Assembly (NCBI GenBank): GCA_002256025.1
Contig: NKIB01013343.1
Span: 1-59,316, forward strand
DNA from: Asterionella formosa
Taxonomy: Eukaryota
Direction: 5' to 3'
Length of the DNA stretch: 59,316 nucleotides
In this document: positions 5,499-44,376 of the stretch, in pieces
Layout of the letters: every line of letters begins with the position of its first letter
Position numbering within the stretch: position 1 is the first letter of the stretch
Translations under genes and position numbers: made by a program
Notes under the pieces: generated by a model
What the model saw: only the letters and a program-made list of their open reading frames with translations
What the model was told of the DNA's origin: nothing
Databases searched by the model: none

Positions 5499-5873
5499 AT
5501 GAAGCTTGCTGTCGCGATTATTGCTGTTGTGGCGTCGGCCCAGGCATTTTGTCCCACTGCTTTTACGCGTGGAGATGTTGCTTCCACCAAGACGCAACTT
5601 TTGTCAGAGCCGGAAGACGATGAGGGAGGAGGTCTTGACTTGAACTTGGAGGAAATGTTCGATATGTGAGTTGGTCGCCAGAGCGAAGCGAGTATATGCC
5701 GTAAAGTTGCTGCACAGCAAAGCATGATGGTTTAACCTCGTTTGTGCCGGGCTTTAATCAGCAGCAACGTACTCACCCGATCTGATAATTTTGTTTGGCT
5801 CAGGTTTGACGCTGCCGACAAGGGGGTGGACTTCGATAAGGCACTTGACAAGGTCAAGGGTGGCACTAAATGA
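5499..5873 (+). CDS. Small (78 aa) plastid-targeted acidic protein of unknown function; exons 5499-5665 and 5804-5873
   Basis: Spliced product MKLAVAIIAVVASAQAFCPTAFTRGDVASTKTQLLSEPEDDEGGGLDLNLEEMFDMFDAADKGVDFDKALDKVKGGTK*. Intron 5666-5803 is GTGAGT...ACTCAC...CAG and preserves the frame. Signal peptide with AQA-F cleavage motif. Confidence 0.85.
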
Positions 5874-6166: not shown

Positions 6167-6556
6167 CTACAATGTCACGGGAGGCAATGCCCCCACGGGT
6201 ATCAAATCACGTGATCCCAGCATGAGGGGAATTAAAAACAAGACAGGGACCAAGGAAAGGATGATGTAAATAATGACTCGGGTTTGTTTTGGGTCGTTAA
6301 GATCCACTTTCAAGACTTCCTCGGCTATGTCGCCTTGGGACAAAAACGGGGCGACTACAGTTTGTGGTGTCGTGGTTGTTTCATCTCCCAATTCAGTGAA
6401 TCCGTCATCTCCTTTGGAAGATGTTAGTCGAAGAGTGGACACACTCTTAATCAAAGTTGCCGGTAAATACCGGACAAATGGTGCCGGTTGAAAGGCAGCG
6501 ACTTGTGTGGTTGTGGTTGCATAAGCAACTAGAGGAAGAGATAAATACAAGAGCAT
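6167..6556 (-). CDS. Plastid-targeted single-pass membrane protein (129 aa), unknown function
   Basis: Signal peptide ending VAA-FQPAP (ASAFAP-like), S/T/R-rich transit peptide, C-terminal hydrophobic helix VIIYIILSLVPVLFLIPLML. Confidence 0.8.
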   Translation of the reverse strand: MLLYLSLPLVAYATTTTQVAAFQPAPFVRYLPATLIKSVSTLRLTSSKGDDGFTELGDETTTTPQTVVAPFLSQGDIAEEVLKVDLNDPKQTRVIIYIILSLVPVLFLIPLMLGSRDLIPVGALPPVTL

Positions 6557-6841
6557 CTTGCTTAAACTGAGTAATTGTACAGATCATGATCAGACAAGCT
6601 TGACAACATCAGCAGGAAAGGGAATATACGCACGGCGGTACGTAAGTAGTGTATAGGACAAACGTATCGGTAGACTATTTCAGCGTAATGTAGCTACCGG
6701 CACGTAGATACCGGTATTTACATCCATCTTACCCCGGTATTTTAGATGTTTGTAAAGGTATTATCAATACGAGGTGCATGATATACTGGTACATACCGTC
6801 AAAACCTGGTGTCTCGTATCCCCCCAGATAGGGGTACCTGG

Positions 6842-7038
6842 TGAAGTATCTAACTAGAAGTAGTAGTATTTGTTGAATATATGAGCTTATTCGTTAATCC
6901 TTGTGTGTAACTCGTTCTCTAAGTCCACACCAAAATATACAATGAGGGTTAGTCGAGTTCTCTCATTATTGAGTTCTGATACATATATGATATAACACTA
7001 ACCCTATATACATCTGTATTGATGAGCAAGATCGCTTA
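6842..7038 (-). repeat. 3' LTR of Gypsy copy 1
   Basis: About 10 mismatches in 197 bp against 10811-11007 (counted by eye); ends ...TACTTCA on the minus strand. Confidence 0.95.
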
Positions 7039-10000
7039 CTCTCCCACACCAAGGAAAACCTTTTACCTTTGAAAAGGTTTGATGTAATGAATATTAATTC
7101 ATTCCGTAGTATGCATAGTTTGTTGAAAAGTAACTGTACCATTGGCATATACTTGAATAATAGAATAAGGACCTCATCCATGGTTATCCAAGGTAGTAGG
7201 ATTATCCAATAGGATTAAAACCTCATCAACAGCTTTGTAATCGCAAGAACGATGATGGAAATTATCACGAAATAGTCATTTGTCAATTATCACTTATCGA
7301 TATTGATATCTCAATATCAATTACATATCTTTAATCAAATCATATTGGAAAACCCATGTTCCTGGTGAAAATACACAATGTACTATAAATAGTAGCTCGA
7401 GCTGCATATGATGCAGCAAACTGGTATCCACAATATTCTGAACTTGAAATTCCTTGATTGGAGGATGAGCCTTTAACATAACTCGTACATAGACTTTTAC
7501 TGATAGATTGATGTAAACGTTCACGGATACCATTTGTTTGTGGATTCTTGACTGTAATGGTCCCAATTTTAATTCCATTCAACACTTACATGTGTATGAA
7601 CGGAATACCAGTAAATTGACCTCCATTGTCATGTATACAACCTTCTGGAAAGAGATATCTGTCTAACCAATCATTTTCAAGTTTCATCGCAATATATTCT
7701 GATGTCTTTTTATTGACATGTGAAATTTCTGGTAAATTGGTGACTGTGTTAACTCAAGTTGGAGCATGAAATTCAATCGCTTGTGCAGTCACTGTTATCT
7801 TCCATGGACCAATGAAATCCACTGTGACTTCTGAGCATTGCAATAATAATGCATTCCTTGGTGGAAGTTCACCAAAACCCAGCACCAGGTAATTTTGTAC
7901 GTTTTGACATGTTTCATATATGCTTGCAATATGTTCCACTCTTGCTTTTAATGGAGGATAGTAAAAAATGTGCAGAAACTGTGGCATTTCATCTTGTCAT
8001 ACCCATATGAGCTAACCTCTGATGATAACAATTAATAATAGGATCCAATAGTGATGTAGGAATAACAATACGTCAAGTATCTCCTGGATTCTTCACAAAA
8101 CATATAAAATGTATATGATGAAAATCGATAGAGGAAAATTTTAACGGATGTGTTTGTTGATTGAGAATGAGATGAGTTGTTTGATTGAGAATCAATTGTA
8201 TATCCAGCAATTGTCTATCATGTATTGAGTTATAATCCAGAGGATATTTAATATTGTCTGCCAAAATTGGATGATTGAGGAAACAGGTAAACAAAGGTTC
8301 ATCATCTAATTCAATTGAGAAAGTAGAAATGGATGTTGATGCTGAAGATTTCGGTCCAATATCATCCCCCACCAAAGACTCAAGCCTCGGGAGGCGAGAG
8401 ATAGAATCTGTAATATTTGACATTATCAGTACCCTTCATATTGTGAAAAGTGAGAAGATATTCTTCAATATAAATCCTCCACCGGAGAACACGTTGAGTT
8501 TCTGTGTAGGGTAATAAAGATAAAAATATGATGATCAGTGTGAACATGTAGAACCGCATTCAATGGCATAGAGCGAAATTCTTTGAAAGTTTCTGAATTG
8601 AAAATCAGAAACATTAGGAAAAAATATGGAAAGGAAAATTACGATCAGGATAACGCATGGGTGTATCTGCAACTAACAATGCTTTTATTGATGCAAAAGT
8701 TTGTTGATGTATGCATAGTAGGTAACCATACAAATGGACTAGTTCCATTTAAATCCTGTTTTGAATTTTGAAGACCAAAATTTGAAGTCAGTTGGAGTTT
8801 ATCGATATCTCAATGAGTCAGTTTCTTCAACAGACCATTTCATTTAGAATTTTGCTGGATGATTTGTGTTAAATAAATTTATTTCAGCCATTTCAGCATC
8901 TTTCTGTGTCTGTATAGTTAGGAGCTTGAATGTTCCATGTGTGAACATAACCCTTGATAGGTGTATCAAAATATGATAACAAACCATTGTGCAAATGTTC
9001 TGTATCATTATAGGAATGCATGACATGCAGAAAAATACTGATATATCCACCATACAGACAGGGCATGGTATTTGTAAATTATCCATCATAAATTAATCAG
9101 CTGGACAAATTAGCAAACTCGCAGAAGGTACTAAGACCAGGTACTTCTGTTGCAAGATTCAAGCTGACGGATTAAACTTTGGGAGCATCATAAGACAGAT
9201 TCAATGTGCTGTTGCTCATAAATATATGTATATTCCAACCTGTAATTATCCTGTAAATAACAATAGTTATTCAGGTAATGATTTACGTAAGACATATTCA
9301 ATGTGCTGTCGCTCATAAATATATATATATATATATATGTAAATTATTAAAATCGTAGCATTGGTGCTATTGTCGCACATACTTCTGTTGTTAAGGCGAT
9401 CTGTTCAGCATTCTGCTGGTTTTTTATTAGGCACATCGGCCACTAACTGACTAACAGGAGGGTTCATGACCACTAAAATTTCCTGGGCAGATTCATGATA
9501 GTCGGCAGGTTTGGCCCTGGGCACAGTACCCTAACCAGACATCATCATAGGGTTAACCCATGGATTTGCTTGTATAAAACATGTACGGAAGAAAAAAAAC
9601 ATGAATAGAGTTAGCTGTGTTAGTATGATAATTTGCTCCACGTAGAATTTCTACGCCAGAGGAACAGGAACAGGAGTCCGAACAGGAACAAGGTTAGTAG
9701 TGTTAGTAATGTTAACTCCATGAACCTTATGTTTGACCGTTGTTTCATATCCCATGAGTGGCCGGCTGCATTAAAATGCATGTGCCCTGCCATTGCCACT
9801 GAGTTTAAAATTATCATGTACAAATTTACGCTTGAAATGGTGGTTGTATTCTTGATACATCACAGGACTGCATTTAGCAATGCAAGACGATCTTTTGTTA
9901 AAATTGACACTAGTCACGCTTATTTTCTTGATGCATCATGGAATTTTCTTCAACTTCAACTATTTATATACGATTTTGTGTTAGAAAAATGACACCAGCA

Positions 10001-10810
10001 GGCACGCGCGTTCTCTCGACATAACACGATTGCCTTCAGCGATGTGAAGTCGATTGCGGCTTATGGTAGAACTCATGCTTGAGAATGAGCTTGAGTTGAT
10101 CTTTGAATGATTGTTGATTCTCAAAGTAAGTCAAAACCAAGCGAATCAATTATTTTGTGTTCTTTTCATTGTTCCATTTAAACACTTGCTTGTTGCCACG
10201 CATTGTCGATCAAGTAAAATGACAATCAACCTCAAATCTTCCTTGGCGGAAACCACTTGATCTTCTGGATGAGTTATCATGAGTTTTAGGAGCTTCTTTA
10301 AGGTCTTGAGACAGGCAGCGACATTCATCAACAGCACGTTGAACTGTTTTATCGAGTTTTATCAGAAAATCCACATCCGCTGAGGCTGTCTTTCAAAGGA
10401 ACATGTCATGAGTACAATAATGCTTCAGCCACCTTACCATGATTTTGTAGAGACTCTCATAGGACTGTTGATTATCTGGGTGCATCGCAACTCTCGCCCA
10501 GTCAGACAAGGCGATATCAATAAGGCATATTCTGTAGAAATAGGAGAACAAGCAAGGAATCTGCTGGACTGAAGATGTATGTGTTAGCCATATCACAGGA
10601 TTTACTGAAATCAATCAACAAGCTTCCACTGAGCGTCAATTGATCATATCTTTGCTGTAAGACTCCAAATGTCGACCTGGCTTGTAAGAATACACAAAGA
10701 AGTTTGAATCTTGATGTTTAGTATGTTGTTATTCTTCATCAATGGGACCACTGGAACTTGAGAGGACATCAACATTATTAATTCTAATTGGACTCTTTTT
10801 GAATTCAAAG

Positions 10811-11007
10811 TGAAGTATCTAACTAGAAGTAGTAGTATTTGTTGAATATATGAGCTTATTCGTTAATCCTTGTGTGTAATTCGCTCTCTAAGTCGACACC
10901 AAAATATTCAATGAGGGTTAGTCGCGTTCTCTCATTATTGATATCTGATACATATATGATATAACACTAACCCTATATACATCTGTATTGATGCACAAGA
11001 TCGCTCA
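10811..11007 (-). repeat. 5' LTR of Gypsy copy 1
   Basis: TG...CA termini on the minus strand (TGAGCGATC...GATACTTCA). Confidence 0.95.
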
Positions 11008-12259
11008 CCTGGTACCTGTGTTGAGGATAAACGATTACTGTTAGCAGATAGTACCTGGTAGTATAACTAGTACTGCAATGACTGCAGAGTGTGCACAACC
11101 GACAGTCATGGTGAGGAATTCCATGGAACAAGAAGGTCAGTTCAGGAAAATATATGTGGGATTCATAAATGGAATAGCAATTCCTACAGATAAAGTCCAA
11201 CATGCAAGTTTAACTCGTTAGACTGAAACAATTGGAACTACAAATTGTATGAAATCAACCAATGAGAACAAAGAGTGGATTGTGGTGAAGAGGAAGTCCG
11301 AGAAAGTAAGATTCATGAAACAAGATCATCTTGGTAAGACCAAGTGATTTGTCAAGATTGATAGAAAATTAATCTGAAGTAATCACAACATTGAAAAAGG
11401 CAAATCTAAAAGGAGATTAAAGTGTTCTCGAAAACTAGCTAGTGGAGAACTAGTAGTACTGGACACTGGACATGTAAGTACTATCGAGGAGATTTGGAAC
11501 ATCTCAACATATTACCTACAACCCCCTGTGTACATCTGGTGCAACCCCTTGCAAATATTTCATGTGTACAGAAAAAATAACACAACATAAACGTATTCTA
11601 TTCATTGATATGTATTTTTGTATATCATTCCTGGTACCATACGACTGTTCCCTGTAAAATATTGTCACAAAAGGCAACATTTGTTATGGCGAAATCCTTG
11701 GCGTCAGAGGTACCACCCATGGAAGGGGCTGTGAACAGCATGCCTGCTGTGGGGCAATCGTGAGGCAGAATGATTGTGTTTGATTCAAGGCAGCAGTGGC
11801 TGGTCCCAATGCATTGATGGAGTTGATCAGGCAGGTATAAAGGCTGTTCTGATCCTTGATTGGATGGAACTGTGCACAGTTGGTTTCCTTGGCAAGAATA
11901 TTACAGCTTTGAAGAAAACAAGTTTGTGAAAGTCATTGAGCTCTATGACTCTAGTGAAAATGCTCCCAAAAGAGCAGAAAGTCGCAATAACCTTGGAGTT
12001 TGTTCATTCCGGCTTCTTGAGAACATCCAGATTCAGGAGTAGATGTTATGAAAAATGGAAAAGCTTTCAAGTCCTTCAATCAATCTACACTATAACATTA
12101 ATAATTGTATTAGAAATTAGCATTTTCACCATTAGAATCTCTTCGGTTTAGTTTTTTTGTAGTCATCAGCTTGTTTTATTTGAACAATACTAGGGTTTGC
12201 CATCCTGAATCTAATTGACAACAATAATTCTTTCACTAAAATTAAATGTTAAAATAGAT

Positions 12260-13540
12260 TATCAAATGATCCGATCCTACTTGACTATTTAACAGCAGCA
12301 AAGCCCTCAAATCCAATGTTCCTCCAGGAATTGGTGATTGTTTCAATTGAGACTCTATCCCAGCATGCCATTTCTGTCCATTGTGCAATGCAATGCCTTT
12401 GCACCTTGGCATTATCCACATTGGAAACCATGTATTCTTCACAATATCCACGCATGTAGTCCTTGAAGGGCTTATTGACTCCTACATCCAACGCTTGAAC
12501 TCTAGAAGTGTAGCTTGGGAGGACGAAATCAACTTCAGTGCCGCAATTTTTAATTGGATCAACACAACGTTCTACCTTGTGGACAGTAAAATCATCCATA
12601 AGAAGGTGACTAGGCTCACTGAATTTTCCCAACACAAACATTCAACCCAAGCTTTGGGTTGACAAGCATATTTAATACCAACCGGAAAAAGTTGTTGATT
12701 GTTGTCTAGCTAGTAATCCCAATTGCCTCGCAATACGTCCATCCCTTGTTCCTGTAAATACAATTAATGGTGGCAACTTCTCACCACTTATTGTCACCCC
12801 TAAAATCACAGTGCAACGATTCAAATTCCCTGTTGTTCGAAGCCCAATGGTCCTTTCGCCTCGGGTTGCCAAAGTCCTTCTTGATTCAAACATGACAAAA
12901 TTGATGTTTGTCTCATTAATATTGACAATGTTTCCAGCAGGAAATTCGAACGCAGCAATTTGATTGTTGATGTAGGAAACAAAATCCTGAATCTGTTCCT
13001 GGTCCAGCCTTGAATTTTGGGCAACAAGAAGCACACGCCTAATGACAATGTCCTTACGGGCGAGCCGGCGCTTGAACCGTTTTTCAAGTGCCTTCAGCGA
13101 CACATTTTAGTTCCAAGGTTGCCTCTTAAGCTCAACACTGAGCATCCTGATGGTGCAGGCCGTATCTTGAAGCCGCAACTGGTCGAAAAGAGACTCCAAT
13201 CCTTCAGACTCAGCAACACCTTTTGGAGAGCAGCCCGGGTGAGCGATTTTTTATCAACACCTGCCTCTAAATCAAACCTTCTTCCTGCAGTGATATCTCC
13301 ACCGCCACCTCCGCCGGACCCACAACTATTGTACCATCTAGCATAGACTTCCAGCTCCGTATCTGCTTTGGCTGAACCAAATCTGCTCTGGCGGTTCCTT
13401 GATATTGTTGGGCTTGCTGTATGCTTCTGCAACAATATTTTCCTTCTGCCTGATGCAGAGATATTTTTTCGTTGTCGTGCTGATGGTTCCGGGATTCCGT
13501 AGAAAATGATTTGGTTGGCTAACCTCAATTTCTATCATGG
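12260..13540 (-). mobile_element. Frameshifted pogo/Tigger-type (CENP-B HTH + DDE_1) transposase
   Basis: Motifs NINETNINF, CTVILGVTISGEKLPPLIVFTG, LLMDDFTVH and LPSYTSRVQALDVGVNKPFK are spread over several frames. TIRs not located. Confidence 0.9.
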
Positions 13541-13849
13541 TCAGAGTTGTAGAGGAGCCTACACAATTAATTACATAGTAGAATAAGGTACAAATTTTAC
13601 ACACTCTAGAAATTTCTGTTGAAGTCATGACGAAATTCGGGCGTGCCAGTGCTCCAAAAATAGAAATTCAATTGAACCTAAAACAATTTATCTTTTAATC
13701 TTGTTATTTATTTGTTTTAGAATATGGAAAAAATGTTTTACGGTAATTAGGCCAATTTTAACCGTGAACCAAAACCAAGACACAAAAATGTAATTTTCGT
13801 TTGGTTATGGTTTCGGTTCAACAGGCTGATGAACCATGACAATTAGTAC

Positions 13850-31369: not shown

Positions 31370-33056
31370 CTAACAGGCAGCATGAGGATGAGATAGGAAA
31401 TAGCGCACATTAGCATCTCGGATTACTCCTTTTTGGGCTAGGAGCCATAGCTCTCCGCCTGAGCGCTTCGTCGTCAGGCTATGAATGGAATGATATCCAT
31501 CTTTCATGCTGTCCATTAGGGGGATGACAGAGTCAATGTGGTCGGCAAGGTCTTCTGCCAAAGTCATGGTCAGGTTAGACTTGACAACGACGCGAAACAT
31601 TGAAGCATCAATAGGAGCTCCAATTAGCAACGCTTCCAATTCTCCCGCCTTGGTGAAGTTGTCGAAATTCATTTGATAACCAGACACATACCAGTGACTT
31701 TCGGAAAGAGCATGTTGCAGATCAACATCATCGTAGCTTACTCCTCCCTCAGGACTGAGACGAGCACCAACCACTGGAAGGCAATGCGTATCCCCATCAT
31801 CGACTATGTGAAATCTAGGCCGTCCATCAGCGAACTTCATGGCCTTCAAACGATCACGCAAAAACTTGGACACGGCCATTTGATTGTCCACCTTCTTTTT
31901 GTACCCATCCATACCTAGGCGTAAGAATTGGTAGTACTGTGCATATGCAGCAGTGGCGGGACGCGAGAAGTTGAGCGTCATGCTATCGCATTGCCCGCCC
32001 AAATAACTGACAGTCACAGCAATGTGCTCTGCAAGATCCTCTCGGTGACGGAAGACAACCCATCCTGTGCCACAAACTGATTCTCCAAACTTGTGACCAG
32101 AAGCCGAAATAGACATGACGTTCTTCAAACGAAAATCGAATGGAGGCATGCTATCTTGAAATGGAGCAATGAACCCACCAGAAGCAGCATCAACATGAAT
32201 ACCAATCTGGTATCCCTTTTCGGTGTTGAGCCTGCCTATGGCCTCGTCAATGTCCCAAATGGGATCATAAGCACCATTATAGTGGTTACCAAGAATGCCA
32301 ACGACAGCAATGGTCTTTTCGTCGCATAAGGCGACCATGCTGTCGGCATTGACTTTAAACTTATTCTCAATGGAAGGTTTGCAAAATCGCGGTTCGACGT
32401 CGAAGTAACGGAAAAATTTTTCCCAGGCTGCTTGGAAACATGTACTGATGACCATGTTTGGTAAGACACCAATGACTTGGCTAGAAGTCAAGCCTTGCCT
32501 TTTGGCATACCACTAAGCAGAAAAGAAGAGAATCAAATGAAGCGTTAGAGCATAGCCCCGAAGCAAAACCAAATGTTTCACCTACAACACGAATCCTTAC
32601 ACTTCTCCAACGAAACTTGAGTGCCAACCCAGCCAGCAAACAAGCTTCCGTGCTTCCCACAGTGCCAGCTCCACTAAAGTCTCCCTCCACTTCAGGGGCA
32701 TTCCAAAGCTTGGCAATCATGTTAACACACTCATTGTGGATGCGAACACTTGCCGGGTAGACGCTGGCATCTGCCAAATTCGTAACCATGCCCAAGAGAA
32801 TAACTTCCTCTTCTTCAGGTTCAGTGACGACATTGACGTAGCTGCTAGTATTCAACCGAGGCTTATTATCCAGTTGATTTTGTTGGATGATGCACTCCTT
32901 CACATGACGAGCGGGCATTCCAGATTGAGGTATAGATTTATGCGTGTTGCGGGGAATAGCTGCATGGCCCGATGCGAAATATTGCGCCTGGTCGTCGCGA
33001 AGGGCCACCAGTTGGGCTTGAAGTTGTGAAATGGTTTCATCTTTGTTCTCCGACAT
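31370..33056 (-). CDS. GAD: Glutamate decarboxylase (PLP-dependent group II), 532 aa; exons 33056-32601 and 32512-31370
   Basis: Motifs TVGSTEACLLAGLALKFRW, IHVDAASGGFIAPF, SGHKFG (PLP Lys), YLGG..TLNFSRP and YYQFLRLG. The 88-bp intron 32513-32600 (GTAAGG...CTAAC...TAG) joins the two ORFs in frame. Confidence 0.95.
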
Positions 33057-33249: not shown

Positions 33250-33307
33250 ATGTATGGTACCCCTGGTACCAGGTACCCTGGTACCATACTAGGTACCTGG
33301 TACCTGC
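33250..33307. repeat. Stacked TA-CC(W/C)GG-TA (GGTACC-rich) tract upstream of GAD
   Basis: TATGGTACCCCTGGTACCAGGTACCCTGGTACCATACTAGGTACCTGGTACCTGC. Confidence 0.85.
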
Positions 33308-36300
33308 TGAGCGATCCTGAACATCGATACAGATGCGTATAGGGTTAGGGTTATATCAAATATATCAGAACTCAATAATGAGAGAACTCAACTAACACCT
33401 ATTGTATACTTTGATGTCAACATAGGAAATGAGTTGTACATCAGGATTAATTAACAAGCTCATATATTCAACAAATACTGCTACTTCTAGTTAGATACTT
33501 CACTTTGAATTCAAAAAGAGTCCAATTAGAACAAAATGAACATGGCAATGTATTCAAGGGTTCCTGTCATTCCTTTGATCAAAGATTACAATGTATTGAC
33601 TATCAAGACTAAAACATTCAGAGTTGCTTTAACCGGTGGAAGGTTTGAATTGTTTGATCAAGATATGATCGATGGAAGCTCTGTGGAAGCATTGTTGATT
33701 GGAGTGAGTAAATTTCGTGACATGGCTAACACATGTGCCTTTAGCCCTGCAGATACCTTTTCCTACTTTAAAAGGTGTTTGACGGACATTGCCTTATCGG
33801 ATTGGTTGAATGTGGAAGTACATCCAGAAGATCAATCCTATGATAGTTTCAATGAAGCGATGGTTTTATGGTTAGATGATCGTTTACCAAATGAGAGTTT
33901 TCGACATCAATGACAATGGATGCTACTCTACTTATCTAAACCCTTTTCTATGTTGGTAATGGATTTCGGAGCTCGTATTAAAACTTTTAACAGGCTACTT
34001 CAACTAATGCCTCATCCAGAAGATCAAAACGGATTGTCAAAAGAAGATATGCGGATTATCATCATCCGGTTTATGCCTGATGAGTGGCAACAAGAGTTTG
34101 AATTGAATCATACTAAAACTTCAGACCAATCAATTCGCTCGGTTCTTGCTTACTTCGAGAGTCAACAGTCGTTTAAGGAATGAAACAAGCATCTTCCCAA
34201 TAACAGTTTTCAAACAATCACGCAAAATCGTCTTCGTATTGCTGAAGGCAATCGTGTGATGCGTCAAGAAAACAAGCGTGTCAGTTGTCAATTTTAAAAC
34301 GATAATTTTACTCGAAGTGGTCGTGGAAGAGCGCGTGCTATTTTCAACGCAGCCGGTCGCGCATGAGATCGTCAGGCGACTGTTCGTCATCAAGCTCTAC
34401 AAGCCAGTCATACGTATCATGATTATCGTGGCCCTTGCCCAGTACATCCTGAAGGTACACATACTTGGGGCAATGGTTTTCAGAATCCTCATACTCAAGG
34501 TGGTCGAGCAGGTAGCATCATGGCTGGTCGTCATAATGGACGTGGCCGTTCCACTTTTGGTGGACGAGGACATTTTGGTGGTCGTGGAGGCGGCTCACAC
34601 AGCAATCCTACAGAAAGCTACCATACTGACACTGCTAACCCTGTGCCTGTTCTACATGCTCGTATGTTAAATACATGGGGTCGTAATACTCATCCATCCG
34701 GTTGGGGTACTGTGCCACATGCCGATCCTACCGAGAATACATCTGCCCAGGAAATTTCAGTGGTCACGAACCCTCCTGCTGGTCAGATAGTGACTTTTTT
34801 CCCTACTACACAACAGCAGATTGCTGATTGCCATCACAGAGGTATGTGCGATAATAGCGATGCTATTCATAATGACTCATTGAGCATATCTCACGTTAGT
34901 CATCACCTGAATAATATTGTTTATTTACAGGTTGAATACACAATGGATACCGCTGTTGCTGTAATGCGGGACATATATAAATGCATCGATAGACATGACG
35001 TCCCACATACATATCAGGGCCCAATTCCGGTTTCCTGTTTTACTTCAAAGGATATATTAACATCAATTGATTTGATTCCATGTCTCTTTTAGCGCCACGA
35101 TTGGTGGATGATATATCTATGCATAAAATACTACGAGTATTATTTGATAGTGGAGGATTCTTATCCTTAGTAATACATGAACGAGTTATGCCTCAAGGTA
35201 TTTCTTTGTCTAACAAGACTTCACAATTAATACATACCATAGCTGGTACTTATTCATCTCATGCCAGTGTTATTTTACATGACCTGATTCTACCTGAATT
35301 TAATCGATCTGCTCGTGTTTTACAACAAAAGTGTCAAGTCTTTAATGGTCTATGCACATTTGATGCTATTTTAGGACGTGATTTCCTTCGTCAAGTTGGT
35401 TTAACCATTGATTTCGTAAATAACACCATGTCCTGTATGTATATAACTGTTCCTATGGATTCTCTCACATTCTTTGATGATGCAGAACGTTTACGTGATG
35501 TATTATTATATTTTGATGCACCTATGATTGTGGAATCTTCATATGCGCTAGAAATTAAATCTACTGAATATAATTATGTGAATATTGATACAGTGGTGAA
35601 TAAACAGATGCATTTAACAACAATTCAACGGTCATGTTTGCGAACTATATTGGTTAAATATCAAATATTATTTGATGGAAAATTAAAAGTTTATCCTCAT
35701 AAACAGGTACATTTGGAATCATTATCAAATGCCATCCCTCGTCAGCAACGAGCGTATCCTGTCGCTCATATTCATCTAGAAATTTTCAAAACCGAATTAC
35801 AACGGTTGTGTGATATTGGAGTCCTACAAAAATGCGGTGGTTCTAAATGGGCGTCGCCTACGTTTATAATTCCTAAAAAGGATGGAATTGTCCGATGGGT
35901 ATCAGATTTTCGTGAACTCAATAAAGTCATCAATCGCAATATATATCCGTTACCTCGAATACAAACGATTCTCACTAAACATTCTGGATATGTATTCTTC
36001 ACCAAACTTTCGCATTAGATGTGGAGAGTCAAAACTTGTGCGTTTCTTCCACTCCATTTGTTTTATATATATATTTACGTCTCCCGATGTGGGTGAAACA
36101 ATCATCTCATATAGCACAAGAAACTATGGAACAGATCCTTAGTGATTTAGATGATGTGGAAATTTATATTGATGATGTGGGTTGTTTTTCAATGAATTTT
36201 TCGGATCACCTTCATTTATTGGACACTATTTTACATCGTTTACAGACATATGGTTTTACAATTAATCCATCTAAGTGTAATTGGGCAGTCCAAGAGACAG

Positions 36301-38246
36301 ATTGGTTAGGCAATTGGTTAACTCCTAATGGATTGAAACCTTGGTCTAAAAAGGTCCAAGCATTGATTAATATGTCTTCACCTACCAATCTTAAAAAAGT
36401 CAGATCATTTCTTGGTGCTGTTATGTACTATCGAGACATGTTTCCTAGACGATCTCATGTTCTTGGACCACTTACAGATTTAATTGGAACTAGTCCATTT
36501 GTCTGGTTGCCTAGACATCAACAAGCTTTTGAAGAAATGAAAGCGTGTTTGATTTCAGATTCACTCATGCGTTATCCTGATCATAATCTTCCTTTTCATA
36601 TATTTACTGATGCCTCTGATTATCAATTAGGATCGGTCATTATGCAAAATGATCTCCCAGTTGCTTATTATTCTCGCAAATTATCTGCTGCTCAAAAGAA
36701 TTATACTACTATTGAAAAAAGAATTACTTTCTGTGGTAGAAACCTTCAAAGAATTTCGCTCTAGGTTTTTGGGTGCAGTTCTACATGTTCATACTGATCA
36801 TTGAAATCTTATTTATAATACTTTACATACTCAATGTGTTCTAAGATGGAGACTTTATATTTATTTTTCATTATGTGAAAGGGACTGACAATGCTATTGC
36901 AGATTCCATCTCTCGCCTCCCGAGGCTTGAGTTTTTGGTGGGGGATGATATTGGACCGAAACCTCCAGCATCAACATCCATTTCTACCTTTTCAATTGAA
37001 TTAGATGATGAACCTTTGCTTACCTGTTTCCTTAATCATCCAATTTTGACAGATAATATTCAGTATCCTCTGGACTATAATTTAATACATGATAGACAAT
37101 TACTGGATATACAATTGATTCTCAATCAACAAACACATCCGTTAAAATTTCCCTCTATCAATTTTCATGACATAATTTTAATATGTTTTGTGAAGAATCC
37201 AGGAGATACTTGGCGTATTGCTATTCCTACATCATTATTGGATCCTATTATTAATTGGTATCATCAGATGCTAGCTCAAGTGGGTATGACAAGATTAAAT
37301 GCTACAATTGCTACACATTTTTATCACCCTACATTGAAAGCAAGAGTAGAACATATTGTAAGAGTATGTGAAGCATGTCAGCGTACAAAATTACCTGGTA
37401 CTGGTTTTGGTGAACTTCCACCCAGGAATGCGTTGTTATTACCGTGGTCAGAAGTCGCAGTAGATTTAATTGGTCCATGGAAGATAACAGTGGCAACTTA
37501 AGTAATTGAATTTCTTGCTCTAACTTGTATTGATACGGTTACCAATTTGGCAGAAATTTCATGTATCAATAACAAAACATCAGAATATATTGCAATGAAA
37601 TTTGAAAATGATTGGTTAGCCAGATATCCCCGTCCAGAACGTTGTATACATGACAATGGAGGTGAATTTACTGGTGCTCCTTTCTTACACATGTTGGGGT
37701 TGAATAGAATTAAAGATGTGACTACTACAGTCAAGAATCCACAAGCAAATGCTAACTGTGAACGTTTACATCAATCTATCAGTTATGGTCTACGAGTTAT
37801 GTTAAAGGCTCATCCTCCAATGAATGAATTTCAAGCCCAAAATATTGTGGATACGTGTTTTGCAACTGCATCATATGCAGCTCGAACTACTATTCATAGT
37901 AGTATATTATGTATTTCACCAAGCGCATGGGTTTTTCAACATGATATGATATTAAAAATTCCTTTGATTACAGATTTACAATTAATATATCAACTTCGAC
38001 AAGTGATAATCGACGAACGCTTACATCGCGTTAATTTCCGTCGTCGATCTTATGATTACAAAGTGGGTGATGAGATTTTATTACTTTTGGATAATCCTAC
38101 TACTTTGGATGATTGTGGACGAGGTCCTTATACTATTATTCGACTACATGCCAATGGTACAGTTATTTTTCAACGCACTATGCATATTACAGAACGAATT
38201 AATATTCGTCGTATCAAACCTTTTCATAGGTAAAAGGTTTTCCCTT
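33308..38246 (+). mobile_element. Ty3/Gypsy LTR retrotransposon copy 2: 5' LTR, gag, PR, RT, RNase H and IN, with stops and frameshifts; 3' LTR absent
   Basis: LTR 33308-33502 (TG...CA). gag from 33536; protease LFDSGG; RT WASPTFIIPKKDG, DFRELN and YIDD; RNase H TDASDYQLG; integrase VDLIGPW, IHDNGGEF and NPQANANCERLH. Similarity to copy 1 stops at AAGGTTTTCC just before the PPT. Confidence 0.95.
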
Positions 38247-42965: not shown

Positions 42966-43673
42966 AGTGGTACCAGGTACCCTTGTAACTGGTGCATGGT
43001 GCACCAGCAAGTTGCGGGCAAAAACAATTTAATATGGAATAAAGATAGCTAAACAATAATTATCATCAGCAAAATTACCGGAAGTCTTCTGCAGTCTGAC
43101 TGCAATGCTAGCTCTTTCTAGACAAGCTCAGTGTATTAAAACCTTCTGTTCTAATCCCACCTTATTGTGAGCTTATTTGATCTATCTTGTAATCATTCAC
43201 TTGACCAATTATTAAGGTTCTCTTCCCAAATTTGTAAATATTTATTCATTGTGTTGTTAGACATTCAATTCTCAACTGACAACTCAACTCCACTCACTTA
43301 CTAGAACAATCGTGAATATTCAATGCTATCTGCATTGCATATATACCTTTCCTTCATTGAAATATTGATTACTTAGAACATTCTCCATTCGAATATTTAC
43401 CTTGGTTTGCTGATATAGTTCTTGGCAATCAATGCTGTTCAAATTCTCACAGCATTTCAATACGGGATTTTGGCTGGAATATTATTCAAGATTGATTAGT
43501 TCGACTGAGCTAATATGCACGCAGTACTAAATCTTGACAGAGTGGTACCAGGTACCAGGTACCAGGTACCCTTGTAACTTGTGCATGGTGCACCAGCAAG
43601 TTGCGGGCAAAACAATGTAATATGGAATAAAGATAGCTAAACAATAATTATCATCAGCAAAATTACCGGAAGT
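42966..43673 (+). repeat. Direct repeats of about 120 bp (42966-43085 and 43540-43673) flanking the inverted copy of the 1260-1650 repeat
   Basis: AGTGGTACCAGGTACCCTTGTAACT...CAGCAAAATTACCGGAAGT occurs twice; the second copy has two extra AGGTACC units. Confidence 0.85.
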
Positions 43674-43684
43674 TGCAGGTACTA

Positions 43685-44376
43685 GGGCGGAGTACCACCT
43701 AAAAACTGCTTTGAATCTCCATCGGAGTTATTTTACGGCTTGTTTGAACCTCTATACGTAGAATAACGCGTTAGTCACGAGTTTTCTGCTTAGCATGTAG
43801 CACTTCTCTATGTATGAACGAGTTAAACTGAACATACATTTGTGTATAGTCGATATTTATATTTCATACGTGAAAGTGTCGATCGACCTTTTTTTGACAA
43901 AATAGCGGTTGACCACGACGTCGGAGTATTCAGGCATGAATTCGTTCATGAATTAAATAAACCTTATCATTATCATTTATTTATTTAGATCACACATAGA
44001 TTTGTTTAGCGCCAATGTAGAAATTATACCAAGTGTATGTAGCACCGGTAATTGATGGCGAATATGCATCATTAAACGTTGCACTGGTAATCCGTCTTCC
44101 CTGTAGAACATAAATTGATTCTACGGTATTAAGATATTTTTATATACCACTTTGAACCTCTATAATTGATAAATTCATGAATATAAACAATCATATCTTC
44201 CATTGTGCGTCGATGGAATCTGGGTGAATCGTTTGTCCAATCATAATCCCCCACCTCTCGTGAACATCTGGAGCATCTAAGATGATTGAAATGAATATTT
44301 CAGTGGTTAGTCATACTAATCGATCGAACGTAGTGAAAACGAGGTTCAAAGCAGTTTTTAAGTGGTACCTCGACCT
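43685..44376. mobile_element. MITE of about 690 bp with about 35-bp TIRs, flanked by TA
   Basis: GGGCGGAGTACCACCTAAAAACTGCTTTGAATCTC vs reverse complement AGGTCGAGGTACCACTTAAAAACTGCTTTGAACCTC. TA at 43683-43684 and 44377-44378. Confidence 0.75.

Follow-up and report, generated by a model that had tools for sequence, protein, structure and literature searches.

Among Ty3/Gypsy retrotransposons, integration into a short fixed sequence is described for the Drosophila errantiviruses and their two-ORF derivatives, of which the gypsy, ZAM and Idefix subgroups insert into the short palindromes TATA, CGCG and ATAT (PMC5408687, PMC3276498). For ZAM, direct binding of the integrase to the CGCGCg target is described (PMC2527525), and sequence-specific integration is given as exclusive to the errantivirus lineage among the elements reviewed in PMC5408687. 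Tf1 of Schizosaccharomyces pombe and Ty3 of Saccharomyces cerevisiae bear chromodomains, are tethered by host proteins and insert near, not inside, a fixed sequence (10.1101/2021.07.27.453949, PMC3706591). Outside this superfamily, the rice Ty1/copia element Tos17 shows the palindromic consensus ANGTT-TSD-AACNT around its 5-bp target site duplication (TSD), as cited in PMC6911290, where only a weak palindrome preference is reported across plant long terminal repeat (LTR) elements. Here we describe a Ty3/Gypsy family of the diatom Asterionella formosa most copies of which are inserted in fixed register in the palindrome TACCWGGTA (W, A or T; hereafter “the word”). Two copies lie on a stretch of 59,316 nucleotides (GenBank assembly GCA_002256025.1, contig NKIB01013343.1; hereafter “the window”), for which an initial annotation had proposed that the family prefers TA-CCWGG-TA palindromes or the promoters that accumulate them.

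Copy 1 (6842–11007, minus strand) is decayed and internally deleted, and is recognized by its LTR pair, TG...CA ends, and inverted matches to copy 2. Its 197-bp 5′ LTR (10811–11007, minus strand) is followed by a 12-bp perfect palindrome at the position of the primer-binding site (10798–10809, minus strand). The 197-bp 3′ LTR (6842–7038, minus strand), whose first dinucleotide is TA instead of TG, adjoins a polypurine tract (7039–7045, minus strand), and both LTRs agree at 187 of 197 bases. The left target half consists of TA and CCTGG (6835–6841), the right half of CCTGG and TA (11008–11014). Thus, as first annotated, the duplicated CCTGG (6837–6841 and 11008–11012) comprises the five bases between two TAs, and removal of copy 1 in silico yields the empty site GGGG-TA-CCTGG-TA-CCTG. 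Copy 2 (33308–38245, plus strand) comprises a 5′ LTR (33308–33502) and a broken gag-pol region with RVT_1 and RNase H domains and an integrase stop at 38233. Its start at 33308 directly behind GGTACCTGGTA and CCTGC (33303–33307), one mismatch away from the target, was likewise placed correctly (left flank, 33292–33307). As copy 2 breaks off near 38245 without a 3′ LTR, its target duplication is unreadable.

The family is a Ty3/Gypsy LTR retrotransposon with a 197-bp LTR and a 5-bp target duplication. Its assignment follows from the domain order reverse transcriptase, RNase H, integrase: RVT_1 precedes RNase H in copy 2, and RNase H precedes Integrase_H2C2 in one natural open reading frame (ORF). 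The LTRs are direct repeats with TG...CA ends, and the 5-bp duplication is exact in 12 of 15 readable flank pairs of elements or solo LTRs. Across the genome, 549 occurrences of an 18-base LTR end were counted, and the same integrase score on dozens of contigs points to a recent burst. Besides the polypurine tract, the family has a 12-bp palindrome at the primer-site position (10798–10809 and 33504–33515). Perfect palindromes of 10–14 bp with different letters occupy this position in about 30 related loci (among L107–L178 and L309–L311), and two Copia families of this genome also carry a palindrome there; a study of fungal Copia elements (PMC5445492) may be relevant here.

Genome-wide, 155 of 251 right-hand junctions read CCWGGTA directly after the terminal CA of the LTR, and 148 of 263 left-hand junctions read TACCWGG directly before its initial TG. 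The search patterns were anchored inside the LTR only, with the right-hand set filtered against the primer site. As background, CCWGGTA follows 158 of 278,632 positions (5.7e-4 per position), which corresponds to an enrichment of ~1,090-fold. The preference for TA-CCWGG-TA put forward in the initial annotation is strongly supported by these counts, compared to 2 of 135 junctions for two Copia families. From the distinct-junction, promoter and near-miss counts we excluded 30 loci from a search that carried one flank base per side. Among the 107 distinct junctions at loci not chosen by their flank, 69 match exactly, 15 carry one mismatch, and 23 carry two or more. Three LTR subfamilies share the target (22/34, 20/30, and 5/10). 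Read outward, the 107 junctions have the profile C C W G G T A C C. The first C after the core is present in 63 of 69 exact junctions and in 87 of 108 background sites; the last two positions thus mostly mirror the usual context of the word, and the core is TA-CCWGG-TA. On contig C1361 (L075, G000:C1361:1233-1271), two copies of different subfamilies reside in adjacent heptamer units 12 bp apart.

Several features place the word at the site before insertion and the cut at its center. In all 11 elements flanked left and right by CCWGG, the central base (A or T) is the same at both ends (p = 0.0005), and at locus L070 the non-consensus CAAGG is duplicated exactly; the word therefore predates the insertion. 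Moreover, of 35 junctions with a duplication other than CCWGG, 24 keep the flanking TA at positions +6/+7, compared to 0–6 at seven neighboring offsets. Internal junctions of the same LTRs adjoin the primer site and the purine tract, not the word. TACCTGGTA also occurs within the integrase coding sequence of the element itself (37392–37400), and no auto-insertion into it was found among the loci examined.

This behavior is specific to the family. For Copia elements, 20 loci were fetched and LTR ends defined for three families. By hand count, 1 of 90 junctions of Copia A and 1 of 45 of Copia B lie at the word (p = 2e-37), while many Copia flanks contain it out of register. The sister word TACCGGTA is found in 28,528 copies compared to 26,886 for TACCWGGTA (reversed controls, 1,718 and 902) and shares the same clusters, but starts only 1 of 107 distinct Gypsy junctions. 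Arrays of words are not preferred over single ones (17/69 junctions versus 28/108 background sites). Taken with the fixed register and the near-miss sites, these results indicate that a regional preference is insufficient, while a symmetric readout centered on the cut fits. A search with a distant integrase for a second Gypsy family as internal control returned 107 matches, and those checked belong to the same family. Some single Copia loci stand out: L191 (G000:C14326:19400-29300) belongs to a few-copy family with LTRs bounded by AGC...GCT instead of TG...CA and a CCAGG duplication, L197 (G000:C971:18800-28700) is a Copia B copy that appears to have duplicated 6 bp (CCAGGG) within TA-CCAGGG-TA, and at L198 and L199 a Copia A element is nested within a copy of this Gypsy.

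We consider it probable that the intasome reads the palindrome directly and that its targets are supplied by the excision of DNA transposons. An integrase multimer would bind (G)TA-CCWGG-TA(C) in either orientation and make staggered cuts on either side of CCWGG, offset by 5 bp between the strands, so that CCWGG would be duplicated. Cut-and-paste transposons that insert at TA would leave the word behind on excision and so account for its abundance, the most likely source being a resident pogo-like family with CCA...TGG ends. Such scars would crowd upstream of genes, and the retrotransposon would arrive near promoters without aiming there. Given that near-miss sites serve as targets too, the integrase seems to respond to the word and not to its history.

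That the integrase itself reads the bases is suggested by its architecture together with the symmetry of the target. The protein is compact (~340 residues) and contains an HHCC zinc finger, the catalytic triad D87-D150-E186, and an SH3-like C-terminal domain with the GPY/F region. Across 26 integrase sequences, H20, C58, D87, D150, E186, and G306-P307 are invariant, and H25 and C55 nearly so. It matches the integrases of prototype foamy virus (PFV) and Ty3 by sequence and fold, and its structural model (predicted local distance difference test score 83) resembles the PFV and Ty3 intasomes; matching the model to these intasomes singled out no specificity residue. No chromodomain follows the integrase at an E-value of 0.1, and in nearly all of the 26 aligned sequences the ORF ends a few residues past the last strand of the C-terminal domain.

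Tethering offers a less direct route to the same sites: a protein from the host or a transposon that binds the palindrome, or the methylation or chromatin state at this place (a CHG site lies within CCWGG), would tether or license an otherwise unspecific intasome. In its favor, the words cluster, with a density of 10.2 per kb up to 100 bp from an occupied site and 0.8 per kb beyond 1 kb, Copia insertions often lie near and sometimes in the same words, and only ~1% of the 26,886 copies are occupied; moreover, tethering is the known route of Ty3 (10.1101/2021.07.27.453949) and Tf1 (PMC3706591). However, insertions are centered on the axis of the palindrome itself, in contrast to tethered elements, which insert away from the bound site as described in PMC3706591. 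The rare use of TACCGGTA in the same clusters, the equal use of single words and arrays, the TA retained at near-miss sites, and an integrase with neither chromodomain nor C-terminal extension argue in the same direction, and we regard tethering as rather unlikely.

The proposed origin of the word draws on its distribution and on a few loci at which a state without it can be read. TACCWGGTA is present about once per 2.5 kb, outside long ORFs, and 65% of copies stand in a G..C context. In the window alone 17 copies are found where 30 Markov simulations predict 0.43. At the end of the pogo-like element that hosts copy 1, the window reads TA-GGGG-TA-CCTGG-TA where 10 of 10 intact pogo ends listed have a single TA, although the alignment at this end is not unique, with the right side disturbed by a 500-bp insert. 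Similarly, the solo LTR L073 carries CCAGGTA inserted at TA, and 3 of 49 distinct LTRs of this Gypsy contain such inserted words. In these few readable sequences, the word behaves as a 7-bp insertion at TA that duplicates the TA.

Between two TAs, CCWGG is enriched 49-fold, CCGG 28-fold, CCWGGG 26-fold, and CCAG 5-fold, and resident TA-flanked elements end in CCG or in CCA. The CCA...TGG family comprises 342 ends; by hand count of the 100 listed, about 86 follow TA and about 73 follow GTA, in line with the G..C context that 65% of the words show. It includes a 2.9-kb member encoding a DDE_1-like protein (atlas score 0.94) and, in the window, a TA-flanked miniature inverted-repeat element with CCA...TGG ends (43695–44365), which represents the proposed source family. 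Tc1/mariner excision leaves 3-base overhangs on the donor according to 10.1101/659086. By analogy, CCG ends could pair through CG to form TA-CCGG-TA, and TA-CC(A/T)GG-TA would result if CCA ends were joined across a single mismatch. Based on these end sequences, the CCA...TGG pogo-like family is the most likely candidate source of the CCWGG word. CCG-ended pogo families were considered for the same role and account for TACCGGTA instead; a repeat at ~43005 that by eye resembled a CCAG-ended element is not TA-flanked, and a search for Tc1-type DDE_3 domains gave 0 matches. Other source families may exist besides the CCA family, for instance among twelve further DDE_1 loci. Locus L233 (28–600) contains an array of ~80–100-bp units in inverted arrangement.

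The footprint idea of the initial annotation holds in part: in readable cases the word has arisen by insertion of 7 bp at a TA, but the source element is a putative one, and near-miss sites are used as well. The targeting could also be real and the word no scar, having spread by slippage of a heptamer repeat or by selection as a regulatory motif. Heptamer tandem arrays are indeed common, with 28 of 108 background sites followed by another unit, words face the 5′ ends of ORFs (47/84 versus 222/603 random positions), empty alleles are few, and no excision of the CCA family was observed. Slippage, however, finds no neighboring unit where single words of 6–7 bp stand at a lone TA in repeats whose other copies are without them, and the enriched words (CCGG, CCWGG, CCAG, CCWGGG) start like the resident TA-flanked elements (CCG.., CCA..). 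We therefore think it unlikely that the word arose in this way.

Several observations weigh against readout of excision scars as the full explanation. The empty-allele search returned 1 true case among 410 distinct sites, with arrays skipped, compared to 6 among 3,465 control sites. TA-CCATGG-TA (0 versus 0.16 expected) and TA-CCA-TA (19 versus 25) are not enriched, candidate transposase pieces of the CCA family have no Pfam match, and deriving CCWGG from CCA ends requires a one-base mismatched overlap and fill-in, unlike the Sleeping Beauty geometry described in 10.1101/659086. On the side of the target, 23 of 107 distinct junctions have at least two mismatches to the word, a small fourth LTR subfamily has 0 of 3 insertions at it, and the duplication is imperfect in 3 of 15 readable pairs (L063, L067, L071). 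The genome-wide counts include duplicated contigs and primer-site variants (5 of 100 listed right-hand junctions). Further, 2 of the 7 matches to a small third Copia family show CCWGG, and a single copy of Copia B lies in CCAGGG; from these Copia cases, some regional or structural attraction also exists.

Promoters as the primary target were suggested by the positions of both copies, which were correctly placed ~250–290 bp upstream of a host ATG (281 bp from 6556 for copy 1, 247 bp from 33056 for copy 2). Insertions gathering upstream of genes are a trait shared with the Ty3/Gypsy elements Tf1 and Ty3. As a gene proxy we used ORFs of at least 150 codons, with ORF starts standing in for promoters. 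Of 50 occupied sites with 3.5 kb of flank, 31 face the start of the nearest outward ORF, as do 47 of 84 free words and 222 of 603 random positions outside ORFs. An ORF start lies within 500 bp of 11/50 occupied sites, 18/84 free words, and 60/603 random positions, so that occupied sites differ from random ones (p = 0.016) but not from free words (p = 1); 0 of 84 free words lie inside long ORFs. Occupied and free words are thus equally close to ORF starts, and promoter proximity is a by-product inherited from the word. The genome-wide flanks are non-random, as initially expected, whereas their proximity to promoters, measured by ORF starts, does not exceed that of free words. Tf1-like targeting, in which the word is struck because promoters are full of it, would fit the excess of ORF starts over random positions; yet at 10 words per kb, blind insertion would hit the register in ~1% of cases, as for Copia, and not in 62%, and copy 1 lies inside a pogo remnant. 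An independent promoter preference is therefore very improbable.

Duplicated contigs, wrongly placed LTR ends, or biased retention of copies could in principle mimic targeting in a fragmented assembly (15,436 contigs) with some recurring flanks, but this is hardly credible given that the LTR-anchored patterns agree, 107 distinct flanks remain after removal of duplicates, identically treated Copia families are negative, and internal LTR junctions adjoin primer site and purine tract.

The nature of its target brings the diatom family close to the errantiviruses: both have a high-information palindromic motif that is centered on the duplication and reaches beyond it. In contrast to errantiviruses, the element resides in a diatom, has a diatom-type integrase and no visible envelope gene, and duplicates 5 bp (CCWGG) instead of 4 bp. 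Its motif is longer and of mixed bases (9-bp core, up to 13 bp) compared to words of 4–6 bp, and its target is apparently written by another class of transposon. Hence, it works like the errantivirus group without being a member. It differs from Tf1 and Ty3 by the missing chromodomain, a fixed position inside the word, and a promoter bias no greater than that of the word. Tos17 is a Copia element, and its duplication itself is not given as fixed in the source cited above. Among diatom elements, a diatom-specific Gypsy cluster is described in PMC2806351. GyDi elements share the order protease, reverse transcriptase, RNase H, integrase and are likely of the same broad lineage; the accessible text of PMC2806351 and 10.1101/2025.10.24.684338 states no Gypsy target motif. 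As for the word, the Sleeping Beauty (Tc1/mariner) footprints TACAGTA and TACTGTA left at the donor site (10.1101/659086) are likewise TA-bounded palindromes with an ambiguous central A/T. The diatom word has five bases between the TAs instead of three, occurs in 26,886 copies, and has a putative source element. In a literature search with most subscription journals and Repbase entries outside its coverage, we found no earlier description of this Gypsy target motif, no paper linking CCWGG to a retrotransposon target site duplication, and none on an LTR retrotransposon preferring footprints of transposons or miniature inverted-repeat elements.

Relatives of the element were collected from 78 metagenome loci (integrase identity 48–63%, one 98%) and 12 loci from collections of prokaryote bins (10) and viruses (2). 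Their contigs are mostly collapsed and circularly permuted, and the 98% relative (L106) has no readable host flank. The six readable right-hand junctions are CAGAG, AACCC, GAGGA, TAGGC, GTCTA, and CTCCC, none of them CCWGG, and 340,867 bases of related loci contain a single copy of the word. From this small sample of sequences, the target specificity looks lineage-restricted. The sole eukaryote-named entry among the 120 listed integrase matches is Nitzschia inconspicua (52%). Diatom-type Gypsy integrase fragments on 10 short contigs of bacterial bins (L305–L314) are probably eukaryotic contamination.

The initial annotation overlooked that copy 1, as judged from sequence matches, is nested within the terminus of a pogo-like (DDE_1) transposon, itself decayed. 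A terminal inverted repeat end of this transposon (6793–6838) is 91% identical over 45 bp to the intact copy L088. The remainder of the interrupted element (11513–13733, minus strand) is 84% identical to L088 and L101 and contains a DDE_1 remnant at 12324–12818 (PF03184 match). Between copy 1 and this remainder lies a ~490-bp insert (11019–11509) with the ends TGTTGAG...CTCAACA, which may be a solo LTR; it is unmatched among the other loci compared and has a high summed depth in other samples. Contigs from three DNA runs of two studies pass from the left flank into the copy 1 LTR (to 6850, 6850, and 6881), and no empty allele of copy 1 appears among the 15 joints shown for other samples (40 more exist). 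Runs that contain this flank come mostly from freshwater or algal samples, in keeping with a freshwater diatom as host.

Both host genes next to the copies look real, the first by an RNA contig and the second by a PF00282 match. The first (6167–6556, minus strand) encodes 129 amino acids without a Pfam match and is covered by a polyA RNA contig spanning 5804–6554. Its N-terminus combines a hydrophobic leader with an AAF motif of the kind typical of diatom plastid targeting. On one RNA contig it converges with another small gene on the plus strand (5499–5871), which has a GT-AG intron at 5666–5803. The second is a pyridoxal-dependent decarboxylase gene (31370–33056, minus strand; PF00282 in two ORFs). 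Elsewhere in the window, near-identical direct repeats lie 588 bp apart (42969–43085 and 43558–43673), and the repeat between them recurs (1261–1648 versus 43081–43450) with a different number of units in a heptamer array.

Few LTR retrotransposons or retroviruses integrate sequence-specifically, and most descriptions concern the Drosophila errantivirus lineage. The diatom family places ~60% of its insertions at a single base position of a 9-bp palindrome and is unusually strict for a Gypsy-type element. Judged by the six junctions that could be read and by the rarity of the word in their loci, its relatives at 50–60% identity seem unspecific. The two would form a natural pair in which to locate the residues responsible for reading the target, an open question for this enzyme family and one of use for site-directed gene insertion. 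It is possible, though doubtful, that the specificity evolved as a response to scars which a pogo-like transposon left in the same genome. If so, relatives in scar-free genomes would have unspecific integrases, and one mobile element would use the footprints of another as a self-renewing landing pad that marks insertion-tolerant DNA. Each scar would in turn offer the pogo element two new GTAC sites, so that elements and scar arrays would feed each other. If the word is indeed an excision scar, the coupling of two transposon classes would shape the promoter-side DNA of this diatom.

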